Assembly: GCA_963710605.1 (NCBI GenBank)
Contig: CAVQBA010000007.1
Span: 128,001-192,000, forward strand
Length of the DNA: 64,000 nucleotides
Direction: 5' to 3'
Source: an uncultured cyanobacterium
GTDB taxonomy: Bacteria; Cyanobacteriota; Cyanobacteriia; Cyanobacteriales; Cyanobacteriaceae
Part shown: in pieces, positions 7,891 to 61,461 of the stretch
Numbering within the stretch: the first letter of the stretch is position 1
Layout of the letters: each line of letters starts with the position of its first letter
Notes under the pieces: generated by a model
The model's database searches: none
What the model was told of the DNA's origin: nothing
What the model saw: only the letters and a program-made list of their open reading frames with translations
Translations under genes and position numbers: made by a program

Positions 7891-7998
7891 TATAGCAATT
7901 ATTAGTATGATGAAGTACATCTCGATCCCCCTAAATCCCCCTTATAAAGGGGGACTTGCAAATAATTAATGTACCTCATAATGATGGTAAACGCTATA
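7891..7998. mobile_element. MITE-like element, TATAGC-N14-TGA(A/G)GTAC ends, internal GC hairpin
   Basis: Left end TATAGCaattattagtatgaTGAAGTAC; right end (reverse complement) TATAGCgtttaccatcattaTGAGGTAC; internal CCCCCTAAATCCCCCTTATAAAGGGGGACTT. Confidence 0.7.
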
Positions 7999-16202: not shown

Positions 16203-18653
16203 TTAGTTGTCTCTTTTAATACCATCAACTACTGGTGTAATACCTGTTCCTCCCTCAAAAGGGGCAGAATTGCCATCCCAATTAAAGTCACTAATTTGGA
16301 AATTGATTGAGCCAATTTCTAACACAGGATTGTAACGTAAGATTACATTGTAAGTGCGACGGCTGTATTCAAGAAAATAATCAGTACTAATTTCTTCGCT
16401 ATTATCGATACTATAAAATGTTTGTAAACCAGCTCTAAATGGTCCATACAATTGCTGAGTCAACCCTGCTGATAATACTTGAGAATCGACAGCTCGATCG
16501 AATAAAAAGGGTGATTCGTCCCCGATAATTCCTTGACTAAAACTAAGATTAAAACCTGTATAATCGAAAAATGGACGAGAAAAATAACCAAATTGTCCTT
16601 CTAAGCCAATAGTCGCTGTCAAATTAGGTTGATTATCTCCATTGCTGTAATAACTAGCTACACCTGTCAAATTTGTATTTAGCCTTAAATAAGGTGCAAC
16701 AGGAGTAGAAGTATATTTTAAACCTTCTTCAGCAGTGGCAGGTAATGGTTCACTTGACCATAATAAGAAATTACCACTGATTAAAGCGGCGGCTTGATAA
16801 CGTGTGAGATTGGTTAAATTATCATCTCGAATAGGCTCTAATAATTCAACTCGATCGGTATCAGCAAGAACATTTTGAATTGAGCCTTGATATTGAATAT
16901 TAAAACGAGTATTGCCAATGGGGATATAAGGTGAAGAAATTACCGCCCCAAAACTTTGTTGTACCGTTCTAAATCCTAACGAACCATTAAAAAGTCGATC
17001 TCGATAGTTGTATTGTAAACTTAGATTGTATGGTGCGGATAAATCACCTACTTTTTGGTTTAATCTAATTGTGGCACGTAAACGATCGTCAATATTATCA
17101 AAATCTAAGCCAGTCAAATTACCAATCGCTCTTAGATTAGTACGTTCTGAAAAATTAGCTTCTAGTCTGCTAACCAAACCATAACTTGAGCCACTTAATA
17201 AACTACCATCGTCATCTTCCTCATCTTCATCGGGAAAAAATGCTCTTTGAAGTAAAATTTGTGGTGTTAAAGAAAAGAAAAAGTTTTCGTTGCTATAAAT
17301 ATCAAATTCTCTTTCGATATATAATCCGCCTAAATCTTCACCATCAAAACCAATGGTAAATAAACCCGGATTTCGCTCACGACGATCGAATACTAAACGG
17401 TTACGAAAAATAGGTATCGAAAAACCTTGGTCGAATACTAACCGAGAATTAGTTGTTACTAACTCATCTCTCAAAGGAGATATTTTGGTTAGATAAGCAG
17501 TATCAGCTCTAATTTCAAATTCAGGAGGAGAAAAAGGATCATTTGTAATTCTAATATTAACTGCTTCCCAACCATCGCTATCAAAATTTACTTTTTCAGC
17601 TTGAAAACGAAAACGATTAATTTTTCCTCCAGTGGCATTAGTGCTATTTCGATTTCTGCCTGATTGTTCTAAAATTGCTAACTCTCTCACACTTCCTACC
17701 ACAAAGCTATAACCACCTTCAGAAACGACTCTTCTTAATGGTTGATTCACTTGTAGTTGAGAAGTTAGTGGTTGTGATTGAATCGGATTATTATTATTTT
17801 CAAAATCAGTATCTTGATTCAAACTTGGTTGATATATTTCTCCACTAGCGTTAAAAATAACTCCTTTATCTTCGACAAAATAATACTCAAATCGATCGCC
17901 TTTGAGTAATTGCTCTCCTCTTTGTAAATTAACATTATCTTGAGCTACTGCTACTCTATCTACTAAATTTACTAATACTTGATCAGCAATTAAAATACCA
18001 TTAGCAAAACGAATAACAACATTTCCTTTCGCTCTAATAATTTGTTCTCGATCTAAATATTCCTGCTCGTCTGCTAAAATTTCGACTACATTTAGAGGTG
18101 TTTCAATCTGATTATTAATTGTTTCTTCTTCTATGTTATTTTCTAAATCTTGGTTATCTTCTTCCTCTGTGTTATTTTCCAAATCTTGGTTATCTTCTTC
18201 CTCTATAATCGGTTCTATAATCAAATCATCTTGAACCAATTTAAATTTTTGAGAATCTACCTCAAATTTAAAATGACGAATCTTGCCTTGACGAGTTTTA
18301 GTGACTAAAATACGATCGCCCATCGCCGTTTCTTTAACACGATCGGGTTTTTTCCAGTTAACCGACGATTGAGACTGTTCTAAATTGGATGTTTCTTCAT
18401 TTACTGTTATTGGTTGCCCTAAAGATTCAGCCGTCGTATTTGGATCGATAGGATGTTCGATCGTGATTGGGATGTTTTCTGGTGACAAGGAAGAATCAGC
18501 AATAATCAACGGTGGATTTTGAGGCTCATCTACTCTATCTTCTGCCAAAATAAGAGACGATCGATTTTCGTCCGTAGTCGAACGCTCTTCAATTAATGAA
18601 GCATCAGCAGGTAGAGAAATTAAAATACTACTTAAAATAGGTATCATCATCAC
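16203..18653 (-). CDS. DUF3769 domain protein (cyanobacterial LptD/OstA-like outer-membrane protein)
   Basis: ADEQEY..A.GNV, RITNDPFSPPE and FLFDR motifs; C-terminal LRYNPVL..GS..ISDFNW. Confidence 0.85.
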   Translation of the reverse strand: MMMIPILSSILISLPADASLIEERSTTDENRSSLILAEDRVDEPQNPPLIIADSSLSPENIPITIEHPIDPNTTAESLGQPITVNEETSNLEQSQSSVNWKKPDRVKETAMGDRILVTKTRQGKIRHFKFEVDSQKFKLVQDDLIIEPIIEEEDNQDLENNTEEEDNQDLENNIEEETINNQIETPLNVVEILADEQEYLDREQIIRAKGNVVIRFANGILIADQVLVNLVDRVAVAQDNVNLQRGEQLLKGDRFEYYFVEDKGVIFNASGEIYQPSLNQDTDFENNNNPIQSQPLTSQLQVNQPLRRVVSEGGYSFVVGSVRELAILEQSGRNRNSTNATGGKINRFRFQAEKVNFDSDGWEAVNIRITNDPFSPPEFEIRADTAYLTKISPLRDELVTTNSRLVFDQGFSIPIFRNRLVFDRRERNPGLFTIGFDGEDLGGLYIEREFDIYSNENFFFSLTPQILLQRAFFPDEDEEDDDGSLLSGSSYGLVSRLEANFSERTNLRAIGNLTGLDFDNIDDRLRATIRLNQKVGDLSAPYNLSLQYNYRDRLFNGSLGFRTVQQSFGAVISSPYIPIGNTRFNIQYQGSIQNVLADTDRVELLEPIRDDNLTNLTRYQAAALISGNFLLWSSEPLPATAEEGLKYTSTPVAPYLRLNTNLTGVASYYSNGDNQPNLTATIGLEGQFGYFSRPFFDYTGFNLSFSQGIIGDESPFLFDRAVDSQVLSAGLTQQLYGPFRAGLQTFYSIDNSEEISTDYFLEYSRRTYNVILRYNPVLEIGSINFQISDFNWDGNSAPFEGGTGITPVVDGIKRDN
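18134..18205. repeat. 2 x 36-bp in-frame tandem repeat
   Basis: TGTTATTTTC(T/C)AAATCTTGGTTATCTTCTTCCTCT(G/A) twice; encodes EEEDNQDLENN(T/I). Confidence 0.9.
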
Positions 18654-18828
18654 CGAATTGATTTTTAGCTAAATGGGTAGTCAACGAAATAATTGGTTCA
18701 CCAGAATAATTGACAATAATTAAACATTAACAAGTATAGACGATTGTAATTGATAATTGATAATACTATACTTGATACCCGCCTTATCGATATACTAAGA
18801 TCTATAATCTATTTTTTCTTTCTTTCAA

Positions 18829-18867
18829 TCCCCCTCCTTCGGAAGGAGGGGTTAGGGGTGGTTGATA
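18829..18867. repeat. left inverted repeat / GC hairpin flanking the DUF559 gene
   Basis: TCCCCCTCCTTCGGAAGGAGGGGTTAGGGGTGGTTGATA; near reverse complement of 19308-19345; degenerate tandem copy at 18868-18895. Confidence 0.9.
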
Positions 18868-18912
18868 CCTTGACAAGCAGGGGCTAGGCGTGGTTACTAT
18901 AGACAAAAAAAA

Positions 18913-19305
18913 ATGAGTGATAAATCAGCTAAAGAGACACCATCATATAAATTAGTTAGTAACCTTAAACAGAAAAGAAAATTAAGACGATCGTTACGCA
19001 ACAACGCCACACAAGCCGAACAAATACTTTGGAAATCGATACAAGGGAAAAAACTAGATGGTTTTAAATTCAGGAGACAAAACTCGATCGATCGATACAT
19101 ATTAGACTTTTTTTGTCCTGGTGCTAATTTAGCGATCGAATTAGATGGTGACACTCATTATACTGACGAAGCGATCGAATACGATCGAATTAGGGATGAA
19201 TACTTGCAAGCAGTAGGAATTAAAGTGATTCGTTATCCCAATCATCAAGTACTTGAAAATCTAGATGGTGTTTTAGAAGATATACGCAAATATTTACCAA
19301 TTTAA
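18913..19305 (+). CDS. DUF559 endonuclease-domain protein (Vsr/YcjD-like)
   Basis: LR.N.T.AE..LW, FKFRRQ, YILDF, IELDGDTH, D..RD.YL and G..VIR motifs. Confidence 0.93.
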   Translation: MSDKSAKETPSYKLVSNLKQKRKLRRSLRNNATQAEQILWKSIQGKKLDGFKFRRQNSIDRYILDFFCPGANLAIELDGDTHYTDEAIEYDRIRDEYLQAVGIKVIRYPNHQVLENLDGVLEDIRKYLPI

Positions 19306-19307
19306 AT

Positions 19308-19345
19308 TATCAACCACCCCCAGCCCCTCCTTCAAAGGAGGGGAG
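19308..19345. repeat. right inverted repeat / GC hairpin flanking the DUF559 gene
   Basis: TATCAACCACCCCCAGCCCCTCCTTCAAAGGAGGGGAG, starting 3 bp after the stop codon. Confidence 0.9.
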
Positions 19346-19400: not shown

Positions 19401-22400
19401 ATGAATAGCGATCGAATTATTACTAAACTCAAAAATTTAACTGAATTAGACGTTCAAAATAATTGGTATTTTACAGATGAAAATTTAACTAATCCTCCTT
19501 TAGAAATATCATCACAATGGCAAAAAGCAGTAGTTAACGAAAATAAATATTTAGTTTGGGAAAAAGGCGATCGAGTTAGATGGTTTGCTCAAAAAATTAC
19601 TATTCCTGTTAGTTTAAATAAAGATAATTATCCCCTCAAAGATTTATCATTAAGAATAAAATTAACTTGGTGGGCTCAATCTGCTCAAATATTTGTTAAT
19701 GGTAAATTAGTTAATGAAGGCGATCTTTTTGATTCTTCTTGTCGAGTTTTGTTAACCCAAAAAGTAGTCGCTAATCAAGAATTTTTGGTCGCTTTACGTT
19801 TAGTTAGTCCCAGCCACGATATTGGCGGTTTAATGTTTTCTCAGTGTCTTTATGAGAGCGAATACGACAAGTTAGATCCTAGTTTTGTCGCTAACGAAAT
19901 TGCTATTATCGATAAATATATTACTAACTTTCATCCCGAAGAAAAAAGCTTTTTCGATGAGTATCTTCAACAAATTGATTGGCAAGTAATTAGTAATCGA
20001 TCGTTATTTAATCAACAATTAAACCAATTTAGACAAACTATTTTACCTTTAGCAAAATATATCAAACAAAGAAGTTTTAATTTACTAGGTCACGCTCATT
20101 TAGATATGGCTTGGTTATGGACGATTGAAGAAACTTACGATGTAGCTGAACGTACTTTTAATTCTGTTTTAAACTTACAAAAAGATAACGAAAATTTAGT
20201 ATTTGGTCATACAACCGCTTATCTTTATCAATGGATAGAAGAACACAATCCTGACTTATTTAATAAGATTAAAGACGCAATTAGTAAGGGAAAATGGGAA
20301 GTTTTAGGAGGAATGTGGGTTGAGCCTGAAGTTAATTTAATTAGTGGCGAATCGCTGGTAAGACAACTGTTATACGGGCAGAAATACTCTCTCGAAAAAT
20401 TTGGTAAATACGATCGAGTCGCTTGGTTGCCCGATACCTTTGGTTTTCCTTGGCAGTTACCGCAAATTTTACGACAAGCGAACATAGAATACTTTGTCAC
20501 AGGAAAACTACATTGGAATGATACTAATAAATTTCCTCATGGTTGTTTTTGGTGGCAATCTCCCGATGGCAGTCAAATTTTTACCGCTATGTCTCCCCCC
20601 AATGTAGCAGGCGTTATGGACACTCATCCGCTTGTGATGACAGATTATAGCGTAGAGTGGGAAAATCAAACAGGCTTGCAAGATAGCTTCTGGTTGCCCG
20701 GTGTTGGCGATCATGGTGGTGGTCCTACTCGTGATATGTTGGATGTAGCTAAACGTTATCAAGATTCTCCTTTTTTTCCTCAGCTCAACTTCAGCACTGC
20801 TAGTCAATATCTAGATAAAATCAGTCATACTTCTAATCATGATGATTTTCCTGTTTGGGATAACGAACTTTATTTAGAATTACATCGAGGTTGTTATACT
20901 ACTCATGCTGACCAGAAGTATTACAATCGTTACGCCGAAAGATTACTCTATCAAGCTGAGTTATTTGCGACGATCGATTATATCTTAGCTCAGAAATATC
21001 AAGCCGACTTTAAAGCGAATAATGAGACTCAACAACAAATTAAGCATATATGGCAAAAAGTACTGTTGAACCAATTTCATGATATTCTTCCTGGTACATC
21101 GATTCCACCTGTTTTTACTGCCAGTAATCAACTTTGGGGTGAGGTGATTGAAGAAGGAGAAACTATATTGAATAATAGCTTACATTCGATCGCTTCTTAT
21201 ATTGATGTTCCTACCTTACCAGATCTATCAGCACAAGTAATTGTTGTGTTTAATAGTCTTAACTGGAAACGATCGCAAATCGTTGAATTAGAAGTTAATC
21301 CTACTCAATATACTATTTACGATTCACAACATAGTCAATTAATAACACAAGTATCTCACGATGAAAAATTACTATTTTTAGCCGAAGATATTCCTAGTGT
21401 CGGCTACAAATTATTTTATCTGGTTTCTACAAATTCACCTAAAAATATTGACGAAATTAATCAAGAAACTTCTATCTCCGAATCTTCATTTATGATGAAA
21501 AACGATAATTTAAAAATTATTATCGATCGTCAAACAGGAAATTTAACTAATGTTTATGACATAGTAAATCAAAAAGAAATTGTCAAGGGTCAAGCAAATG
21601 AATTACAATTATTTCAAGATTCTGGTCAATATTGGGATGCTTGGAATATCGATCCTAATTATGAACAACATTTGTTAGATACTCCTGAGGTAAAATCGAT
21701 TAAATGGTTAGAAAAAGGAAAACTTAGACAAATAATTAGAGTAGAAAAAATATTTAATAAATCTTCTTTTATTCAAGACTACATTTTAGAAACTAATTCG
21801 CCAATTATCAAAATAAAAAATCAGGTTAATTGGCAAGAAGATTACACCTTATTAAAAGTTAATTTTCCTTGCAAGATTGAAAGTGATTATGTAACCTACG
21901 AAATAGCTTGTGGTAGTATCAAAAGGACAACTAAACCCGTCACAGCCACCGAAAAAGCCCAATGGGAAGTTTATGGACATCAATGGGCAGATTTAGGTAA
22001 TGATGATTATGGTGTTAGTTTAATCACTGATAGTAAGTATGGATATGATAGTAAGCCTAATCAGTTACGGTTGAGTTTATTAAGAAGTCCTAAATGGCCA
22101 GATTCTCAATGCGATCGAGGTCAACATAATTTTACTTATGCTTTATATCCTCATCAAAATAGTTGGCAAAAAGCCCAAACAGTACGTCAAGGTTATCAGT
22201 TAAATACTCCTTTACAAACTATATTTTTATCCTCATTAAATAATCAATTAACTAATTTGTCTTCTACAGAAACTTTTATCGATTTTGGTTCAGATAATTT
22301 AATTTTAATATCTTTTAAACAAGCTGAAGATTGTAGTAATAAGTTTATTCTTCGTGGTTATGAATCTCACCATCAACCAGCATTATTTACTTCAACAAAA

Positions 22401-22517
22401 ATGTTAGATTTATCTATTTTAAAACCTGTTAATTTGTTAGAAGATAGTTTAGATAATCACGATCGTGATTTTAAGACAATTAAACCGAGTAGTATTTTTA
22501 CTTTCTTACTTAGTTAA
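19401..22517 (+). CDS. alpha-mannosidase (GH38)
   Basis: GHAHLDMAWLW, WLPDTFG, GDHGGGP, ELYLELHRG and QFHDILPG motifs. Confidence 0.95.
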   Translation: MNSDRIITKLKNLTELDVQNNWYFTDENLTNPPLEISSQWQKAVVNENKYLVWEKGDRVRWFAQKITIPVSLNKDNYPLKDLSLRIKLTWWAQSAQIFVNGKLVNEGDLFDSSCRVLLTQKVVANQEFLVALRLVSPSHDIGGLMFSQCLYESEYDKLDPSFVANEIAIIDKYITNFHPEEKSFFDEYLQQIDWQVISNRSLFNQQLNQFRQTILPLAKYIKQRSFNLLGHAHLDMAWLWTIEETYDVAERTFNSVLNLQKDNENLVFGHTTAYLYQWIEEHNPDLFNKIKDAISKGKWEVLGGMWVEPEVNLISGESLVRQLLYGQKYSLEKFGKYDRVAWLPDTFGFPWQLPQILRQANIEYFVTGKLHWNDTNKFPHGCFWWQSPDGSQIFTAMSPPNVAGVMDTHPLVMTDYSVEWENQTGLQDSFWLPGVGDHGGGPTRDMLDVAKRYQDSPFFPQLNFSTASQYLDKISHTSNHDDFPVWDNELYLELHRGCYTTHADQKYYNRYAERLLYQAELFATIDYILAQKYQADFKANNETQQQIKHIWQKVLLNQFHDILPGTSIPPVFTASNQLWGEVIEEGETILNNSLHSIASYIDVPTLPDLSAQVIVVFNSLNWKRSQIVELEVNPTQYTIYDSQHSQLITQVSHDEKLLFLAEDIPSVGYKLFYLVSTNSPKNIDEINQETSISESSFMMKNDNLKIIIDRQTGNLTNVYDIVNQKEIVKGQANELQLFQDSGQYWDAWNIDPNYEQHLLDTPEVKSIKWLEKGKLRQIIRVEKIFNKSSFIQDYILETNSPIIKIKNQVNWQEDYTLLKVNFPCKIESDYVTYEIACGSIKRTTKPVTATEKAQWEVYGHQWADLGNDDYGVSLITDSKYGYDSKPNQLRLSLLRSPKWPDSQCDRGQHNFTYALYPHQNSWQKAQTVRQGYQLNTPLQTIFLSSLNNQLTNLSSTETFIDFGSDNLILISFKQAEDCSNKFILRGYESHHQPALFTSTKMLDLSILKPVNLLEDSLDNHDRDFKTIKPSSIFTFLLS

Positions 22518-44583: not shown

Positions 44584-44704
44584 TATAGTAGGAAAGGAAT
44601 TGCTTAGGATATGTATAGATTAAAGTCTCCCCTTCCCAAGGGGAGATTTAGAGGGGTTGTATTTAAGATCGAAAAACGTCCTGACTAATTCTTGTATTGC
44701 TATA
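44584..44704. mobile_element. MITE-like element with TATAGC-N14-TTAGGAC-type ends, internal GC hairpin
   Basis: Left TATAGTaggaaaggaattgcTTAGGAT; right (reverse complement) TATAGCaatacaagaattagTCAGGAC; internal CTCCCCTTCCCAAGGGGAGATTTAGAGGGG. Confidence 0.72.
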
Positions 44705-61355: not shown

Positions 61356-61461
61356 TATAGCAAGTAACGGGTGAGTTAGGACACTTTAATTGTATTTCCC
61401 CGTTTATAAGGGGGACCCGTGGGAGATCGATAACGTCCTAACCATCTTGTTTTCTGCCATA
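61356..61461. mobile_element. MITE-like element, TATAGC-N14-TTAGGAC ends, internal GC hairpin
   Basis: Left TATAGCaagtaacgggtgagTTAGGAC; right (reverse complement) TATGGCagaaaacaagatggTTAGGAC; internal TCCCCGTTTATAAGGGGGA. Confidence 0.72.

Follow-up and report, generated by a model that had tools for sequence, protein, structure and literature searches.

The REP/REPIN-RAYT systems consist of a short structured repeat that occurs in hundreds of copies, and of one or a few genes that are flanked by inverted copies of this repeat, with gene clades that match the repeat types within a genome. The BoxC/PIT/TM repeats, which have been in catalogues since the 1990s, form triplexes that are stable in vitro and are markers of unstable genome regions, while the Rickettsia palindromic elements and other miniature inverted-repeat transposable elements (MITEs) are short structured repeats that insert in frame into genes, and we know of no gene of their own inside such elements. 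Here, a locus is analysed at positions 18829-19345 of a 64,000-nucleotide window (i.e. the whole stretch of DNA under analysis, C7:128001-192000) of a cyanobacterial genome (G000; 3.93 Mb, 33% G+C, 7 contigs), where a gene for a DUF559 nuclease is bracketed by two inverted copies of a repeat of the BoxC/PIT/TM kind. Judging from its architecture, its distribution and the state of related loci, this stretch is probably (at roughly 60%) a mobile cassette, composed of a motif, the DUF559 gene and an inverted motif, in which the nuclease acts on the motif ends as the partner enzyme of the repeat.

BoxC, PIT (potential intrastrand triplex) elements and TM_ECO are the names in use for such motifs (Holder et al., NAR 2015, PMC4666352), and the same source relates the earlier work of Hoyne/Maher (2000) on these repeats. 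A triplex motif, as defined there and used here, contains a pyrimidine block, a complementary purine block and a G/T(A) third block mirroring the latter in antiparallel fashion, connected by short loops (PMC4666352). G/C-rich triplex motifs are described as abundant in cyanobacteria, and triplex motifs as linked with genomic instability and polymerase stops (PMC4666352). According to the main text of Holder et al., mobility functions have never been found near the motifs, and that main text mentions neither 'ycjD', a DUF559 gene of E. coli, nor 'endonuclease' (PMC4666352). Among the titles and abstracts found in an open-access library, none links DUF559/YcjD to these repeats.

An earlier note on this DNA had described a 130-aa DUF559 gene between GC-rich hairpin repeats in inverted orientation, the right one beginning 3 nt past the stop codon, and both coordinates and sequence were found to be as it had them (Table 1). 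Over the 26 nt of the inverted arms (18842-18867 and 19308-19333), complementarity is 92%. At the left end the blocks follow each other in the order C-block CCCCTCCTT, loop CGG, G-block AAGGAGGGG, loop TTA, mirror third block GGGGTGGTT and then GATA, where the third block is what had been noticed as an asymmetric tail of the hairpin, directed toward the gene. Both ends are returned by a strict motif finder (rules after Holder et al.: stem of 7 or more, no more than 1 mismatch, both strands), which overlooks decayed and interrupted motifs: the left one at 18831-18863, where stem and mirror are free of mismatches, and the right one at 19313-19343 on the minus strand, with 0 mismatches as well. 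As single-stranded DNA, each arm folds into a G/C hairpin of 8-9 bp (left, -9.3 kcal/mol, z -2.2; right, -8.4 kcal/mol, z -3.1). A 25-nt core has 2 copies in the window at up to 3 mismatches, and none of 100 dinucleotide shuffles contained any match. Across the whole genome the repeat is scattered, with 78 matches of the 25-mer (at most 6 mismatches) and 113 of a 14-nt core (at most 2 mismatches). The 'degenerate tandem copy' next to the left end stood in part: it is homologous to a decayed second copy at the same position in the cassettes of the genomes G004 and G009, where it is read as SKSLKDGLGV, but its identity to the left copy is 60% over 25 nt and its fold is not significant (z -0.8).

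Table 1. Coordinates of the features in the window
Feature	Positions	Strand	Basis
DUF559 (Vsr-like PD-(D/E)XK) nuclease gene, intact, 130 aa	18913..19305	+	PF04480 match
Left end, type A class II triplex motif, third block toward gene	18829..18867	+	strict finder, hairpin, inverted partner
Right end, type A triplex motif, third block toward gene	19308..19345	-	strict finder, hairpin, inverted arms
Decayed second motif copy, in tandem with left end	18868..18895	+	identity to left copy
DUF3769 gene, neighbour of DUF559 gene	16203-18653	-	Pfam family
GH38 mannosidase gene, neighbour of DUF559 gene	19401-22517	+	
Solo motif, type C, AAGGGGGA / TTT / AGGGGGAT, outside cassette	7925..7954	-	
Solo motif, AAGGGGAGA / TTT / AGAGGGGTT	44626..44658	+	
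Solo motif, type C-like, one mismatch	61397..61427	+	

On all sequence criteria, the repeat has the architecture of a class II (purine-motif) intrastrand-triplex motif of the BoxC/PIT/TM kind. Its tail, read 5' to 3', is a mirror image of the purine arm in which G stands against G and T against A. The strict finder returned 240 motifs in the source genome, compared with 0 and 1 in two shuffled genomes, and a generic motif pattern 370, compared with 8 for the reversed control. Of the 322 perfect 8-bp pyrimidine/purine hairpins in this genome, which were collected without presupposing the tail, 144 are followed by a mirror block at 7 or more of the 8 positions. For hairpins with asymmetric arms and a G-rich tail, 136 of 159 match their own tail at 7 or more of 8 positions, versus 68 of 159 on average and 82 at most when tails were permuted among hairpins of other types (200 permutations). 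The repeat family is abundant and real, and it is of an already published kind. The earlier note had called the repeat 'REP-like', an identity that is ruled out by the mirror third block and the triplex block order, since REPs are not known to have such a third block.

In several respects the repeats agree with what is described for BoxC, PIT and TM_ECO elements, i.e. a C-rich block, a loop, a G-rich block, a short loop (TTA in TM_ECO type A as well as here) and a mirroring G/T block, present in many dispersed and mostly intergenic copies; a control oligonucleotide used by Holder et al. even has the block order and the TTA second loop found here (PMC4666352). The block sequences of TM_ECO differ, however, as is seen when AAGGAGGGG/GGGGTGGTT is compared with the E. 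coli copy beside ycjD. Furthermore, several types co-exist within one genome here, namely A (AAGGAGGGG/GGGGTGGTT), B (AGGAGAGGGG/GGGGTGAGGT), C (AAGGGGGA/AGGGGGAT) and D (AAGGGGGG/GGGGGGAT), and a nuclease gene is bracketed, whereas Holder et al. report having found no mobility gene in the vicinity of the motifs (PMC4666352).

The 130-aa product matches Pfam PF04480 (DUF559) with an E-value of 3.2e-33 and 114.3 bits (family cut-off 20.6), and a Pfam scan of the protein gave DUF559, MTES_1575 and DUF2726 only. With a profile made from the window protein and its relatives, the PDB entries 3hrl (E 2.6e-28) and 3r3p (the catalytic domain of I-Bth0305I, E 0.002) were matched. I-Bth0305I is a proven homing endonuclease of the EDxHD or Vsr-like kind (PMC3239194, PMC2677866), together with which DUF559 has been placed in the Vsr branch of the PD-(D/E)XK nucleases (PMC3424549). 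Eight residues (D65, E76, D78, H82, D91, R94, R107 and N110) are invariant in an alignment of 16 sequences and all of them are present in the window protein; the first five, which belong to the core of the family, are probably catalytic. In its layout and numbers the locus resembles REP-RAYT, since a gene is flanked by inverted copies of a repeat that is dispersed over the genome, and on this likeness the earlier note was right. RAYT, however, is an HUH/Y1 transposase, whereas the enzyme here is a PD-(D/E)XK Vsr-like nuclease, so that the cassette is not a member of the REP-RAYT group, membership being ruled out by the enzyme family. A further difference is that cassettes and motifs also occur in frame inside genes here.

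The DUF559 gene is rich in the core of the HIP1 octamer (GCGATCGC, 1416 occurrences in the genome): CGATCG has 6 sites in its 393 bp, i.e. ~15 per kb versus 2.15 per kb genome-wide. The octamer itself, like the DUF3769 family of the neighbouring gene, points to a cyanobacterial origin of the genome. An 18-nt stretch of the gene, GCGATCGAATTAGATGGT, is found again, almost unchanged, at 19567-19584 in the mannosidase gene. The one DNA sequencing run found (share 0.07) could be matched to the window by a single 203-nt contig, at 18544-18744, which lies outside the cassette; no RNA run was found.

Four DUF559 loci were found in the source genome by tblastn, and the paralogues are 42-51% identical to the window protein. 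By eye, G/C hairpin motifs lie near both ends at 4/4 of them. A strict motif lies within 120 bp of an end at 4/4 DUF559 loci, versus 168 of 2886 proxy open reading frames (ORFs; this set is not a gene call). Strict motifs at both ends were found for 7 of the 2886 proxy ORFs, the window gene being one of the 7, while at the other three DUF559 loci the partner motif has decayed, is cut short by the start codon or is interrupted by an insert nested in it. The six other small genes with motifs on two sides are treated as chance, because their motif types and orientations are mixed. Two of the seven, C2:181062-181505 and C4:40176-40739, which we take to be YraN/UPF0102-like and Uma2/DUF820-like PD-(D/E)XK genes, have flanking motifs of mixed type in direct orientation. 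At C7:411852-412167 (L027/L029, outside the window) a DUF559 gene of another clade is broken by an in-frame TGA and has type C motifs in direct orientation, the upstream one being split by a further small hairpin repeat.

The same association recurs in other bacteria. An alignment of 16 DUF559 proteins was used to scan one genome per species, with peptide patterns that lie inside the protein and not in the repeats, which gave 80 loci in Cyanobacteria, Bacteroidota, Patescibacteria, Chloroflexota, Nitrospirota, Proteobacteria and other groups. A strict motif was present within 260 bp of the domain at 73/80 loci, and on both sides at 46/80. Near the gene, 187 motifs were counted per 41,090 bp, versus 46 per 186,137 bp in the remaining flanks of the same loci. 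With the ends of neighbouring ORFs as a control for intergenic position, a motif was found within 120 bp of 90/140 ends of stand-alone DUF559 genes (64%), as against 4/141 ends of neighbouring ORFs (2.8%). The third blocks point toward the gene at 34 of the 46 two-sided loci (reverse at 7, direct at 5), and among the one-sided loci 13 of 14 with a left motif and 9 of 13 with a right motif have the same sense as the window layout. Left and right motifs have the purine block in common at 32/46 two-sided loci. The stand-alone DUF559 genes of the 20 relatives agree with this, as at L003, where a near-perfect inverted pair is situated directly after the stop codon. Taken over the 4/4 loci of the source genome, the 73/80 loci elsewhere and the 34/46 pairs with tails toward the gene, the association is specific and oriented, and the gene and its two repeats behave as one unit, as had been proposed. 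In E. coli K-12 (L165, NC_000913.3) the only strict motif in 22 kb, one of the TM_ECO type, is located at 1351204-1351239, on one side of ycjD, the DUF559 gene of that stretch, 168 bp past its stop codon; a short CCCCTAACCC remnant lies between ycjD and its motif.

Hairpin and protein also co-vary, which had been put forward as a point worth looking at. The clade of the window gene goes with type A (with the exception of G019, which has a G-run variant motif), a second DUF559 clade goes with type B at 8/8 loci, and two further clades go with types C/D at 10/11 loci, L012 being without a strict motif. Six genomes (G000, G002, G004, G007, G009 and G012) contain two or three of the clades, and the same pairing holds within each of them. 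In a maximum-likelihood phylogeny of 24 DUF559 domains, 5 changes of the type label are needed (the minimum being 4), versus a mean of 11.9 after shuffling, and 0/200 shuffles were as low. Since the clades span several genomes and the genomes hold several clades, genome kinship does not explain the co-variation, which would follow either from common descent of the gene and its ends as one unit or from recognition.

Motif copy number was also compared with the presence of DUF559. A DUF559 match above the family cut-off was found in 13/20 relatives, and in all 13 the generic pattern is in clear excess over the reversed control. Three relatives without the gene have no such excess (G003, 73 vs 68; G008, 69 vs 56; G017, 46 vs 50), and G006, with a weak partial DUF559 match only, has 9 vs 2; the other four of the eight relatives without an above-cut-off gene do have an excess, as discussed below. 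When genomes and motif types are cross-tabulated for 21 relatives, with thresholds that were set after the counts were seen, cognate motifs are present in 19/20 cells with the gene, and 8 or more motifs in 9/43 cells without it. The gene is thus always accompanied by its motifs, whereas the motifs occur in some cases where the gene is absent.

Occupied, motif-only and empty sites were found in the genes that host the closest relatives of the window protein. These relatives (74, 72, 70 and 68% identity) are embedded in open frames that are 975 to 1205 aa long and belong to N6-adenine methyltransferases, with the cassette in frame. The type A motif is translated along with them as …PPLKEGLGGV…, and so is the decayed second copy. 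On the DNA level, the window is similar to the methyltransferase-borne loci from the left motif onward. At the site HGNALQIDW...GNPPF, the orthologues of G034, G156, G140, G067 and G072 (73-86% identity over the preceding 250 residues) are empty, with 20-odd residues and no motif, whereas G010 has a motif doublet only, and G009, G004 and G019 have the full order motif-DUF559-motif; at L085 the GNPPF context likewise follows the right motif. In a second methyltransferase family, where the type B clade occupies another loop, most of the 20 loci read are empty, G019 has motifs only, G002 a full in-frame cassette and G009 a frame-broken one. Tandem arrays of 36-nt motif units (L033, G002 C1:1661703-1662422; L007/L034, G009) are translated as SPxGExLxVRx repeats within a type ISP-like methyltransferase, which in G009 is split by the frame break at the cassette. 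The type A motif has a length of 33 nt and the tandem units of G002 have 36 nt; both lengths being divisible by three, a protein loop can take up a motif or a whole cassette and keep its reading frame.

The cassettes of the relatives are read through in the host ORF without a stop (open frames of 1205, 1120 and 1289 aa), while the window copy is intergenic; the DUF559 pseudogenes L020, L021, L027 and L028 contain in-frame stops. As for the window locus itself, the earlier note had suggested a check of relatives for an unoccupied site where the DUF3769 gene adjoins the mannosidase gene, and no exact empty site of this kind was present among 13 of them. Upstream of the mannosidase gene these 13 have other neighbours, with no DUF3769, DUF559 or motif, and the DUF559 gene is therefore not syntenically fixed. 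The unrelated contexts, together with the states of presence and absence at orthologous sites, support the view that the unit moves as a whole.

The cassettes resemble the Rickettsia palindromic elements in that repeats are found in frame in protein loops (14/240 motifs of the source genome lie within long open frames, besides those in the methyltransferase genes), and differ from them in that a nuclease gene travels with the repeats and that no fixed target duplication was found. Transposons of the insertion sequence (IS) or MITE type share the inverted ends, but their fixed-length target duplication was not found here. Direct repeats of 16 to 81 nt flank 11/93 loci, and those inspected are mostly repeated motif-doublet modules (L117, L128, L137 and L151). 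The clearest target duplication met with concerns L010 (in G010) and L026 (in G012), which are nearly identical DUF559 cassettes in two genera; at the borders of each, the final codons of the gene upstream (…MGRELDSD*) are duplicated over 22-29 nt.

If the nuclease is the partner enzyme of the repeat, the following sequence of events is the most likely. The Vsr/EDxHD-type nuclease would recognise its own motif type, either as folded or as duplex DNA, and would cut at or beside the motif, more precisely beside the third block, which adjoins the gene at both ends. Repair or copying at the break would then transfer the cassette. The ~240 motifs that stand alone or as doublets would be related to it as non-autonomous elements, either propagated in trans or left behind, comparable to MITEs with respect to IS and to REPs with respect to RAYT.

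Several observations weigh against this explanation. In the source genome, strict motifs are present on both sides at only 1/4 DUF559 loci (that of the window), near-identical copies of the gene are lacking, and with paralogues as divergent as those found, recent movement within it is not demonstrated. There is no enrichment of gene-less facing motif pairs in that genome either (5 convergent, 10 divergent and 6 direct within 100 bp, of mixed types). A fixed-length target duplication was absent from the 93 loci, and at the window locus none was found, the best direct repeat being 11 nt. Regarding the wider survey, the 80 loci are those that best match an alignment of cyanobacterial copies, and related genomes are not independent; 7/80 loci are without a strict motif, and 12/46 two-sided loci have other orientations. 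Finally, the generic pattern is in excess in four genomes without an above-cut-off DUF559 (G014, 316 vs 62; G015, 129 vs 14; G011, 99 vs 28; G001, 63 vs 12), from which it follows that the motifs persist, or spread, without the gene. In G014 and G001 the gene may have been missed, because the former is in 510 contigs and the latter is 67% complete. Many contigs of G014 start or finish in triplex motifs, so that the assembly breaks at motifs and a DUF559 gene, if present, may be unassembled.

The main rival of a partner enzyme is a homing parasite, where the motifs spread by some other route and a free-standing DUF559 endonuclease targets them, being copied in by recombination with the motifs as homology arms, and without propagating the solo motifs. 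This would account for the motif-rich genomes in which no DUF559 was found (G014, G015 and G011), for the 9/43 cells with a motif type that lacks its cognate clade, for motif-only alleles at the sites of cassette alleles, and for the occupation of one site in homologous methyltransferase genes of four genomes. The family is, moreover, related to I-Bth0305I, and the locus shares with the EDxHD or Vsr-like homing endonucleases the nuclease superfamily, with a sequence relation that can be detected, and with homing endonuclease genes in general that a given site of homologous host genes is filled in some alleles and empty in others. However, G004 and G009 each have 3 type A pattern matches, all of them located at the cassette, and type A motifs being found solely there, the gene must have brought its motifs along instead of finding them in place. 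The gene also lies between two complete inverted motifs and not between the halves of a split target, and empty facing pairs of the same type were not seen in the source genome. Unlike homing endonuclease genes that reside in a self-splicing intron or intein or between split-intein halves, the cassette is either intergenic or read through in frame (no search for intein or intron signatures was made), and its flanks are structured repeats that are also present in hundreds of solo copies. A homing parasite is therefore regarded as unlikely, although it is the alternative that has to be taken most seriously.

Less probable still is a host function, in which the protein would be a Vsr-like enzyme that repairs or processes damage or stalled replication at the triplex or hairpin, and the motifs would be regulatory or protective elements of its gene. 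A role as a Vsr-like repair nuclease has been proposed for a DUF559 protein of Caulobacter (PMC12907096), Holder et al. tie the motifs to genomic instability and polymerase stops (PMC4666352), and a genome mostly has from one to three copies of the gene for each clade. A housekeeping gene, on the other hand, is expected to be syntenic, which the window gene is not, and its relatives lie in frame within genes whose orthologous sites are empty; pseudogenes (the four listed above) are common and the distribution is patchy (14/21 relatives). Least probable of all, and very doubtful, is a passive association without any molecular link, in which motifs gather in the same permissive, fast-changing spots as small accessory genes: although motifs do cluster (C6:868362-869417) and six other small genes of the source genome are flanked on both sides, the latter have mixed types and orientations, and motifs occur at 64% of DUF559 gene ends versus 2.8% of neighbouring-ORF ends, with an orientation bias (34/46), a shared type on left and right that follows the nuclease clade within single genomes, and a pairing that recurs across phyla.

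Some further observations concern the motifs of the source genome themselves. In type B motifs (e.g. C6:216523, C4:140114 and C6:261915) a nested small repeat is often present inside the hairpin loop, the core of which, GGGAACGCT[GC]ACCAAGAC, has 11 copies in the genome, and in type A motifs the third block is preceded by a second small repeat (26 pattern matches). Small repeats thus appear to insert into small repeats. Near C6:868362-869417, several motifs are clustered within 1.5 kb.

Both the kind of repeat and the DUF559 family were already known; what would be new is a system of a repeat plus a partner gene with a different class of enzyme, tied to an old orphan repeat. Whether this extends beyond the present locus, in such a way that DUF559 nucleases would be the partner enzymes, sought in vain since the 1990s, of BoxC/PIT/TM repeats throughout bacteria, and would form with them a new class of mobile DNA with clade-matched ends, read by the nuclease as a folded hairpin or triplex, that colonises, also in the form of gene-less derivatives, both intergenic DNA and, in frame, protein loops, is considered an evenly balanced question. 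With a nuclease partner that is specific, oriented and co-varying, the origin of the BoxC/PIT/TM repeats becomes testable with one protein and a few oligonucleotides. If the explanation is true, it would account for the odd in-frame inserts in methyltransferases and other proteins, it would give a role to DUF559, a large family of unknown function, and an element with only a PD-(D/E)XK enzyme would join the known kinds of mobile DNA, which may also be a source of structure-specific nucleases as tools.

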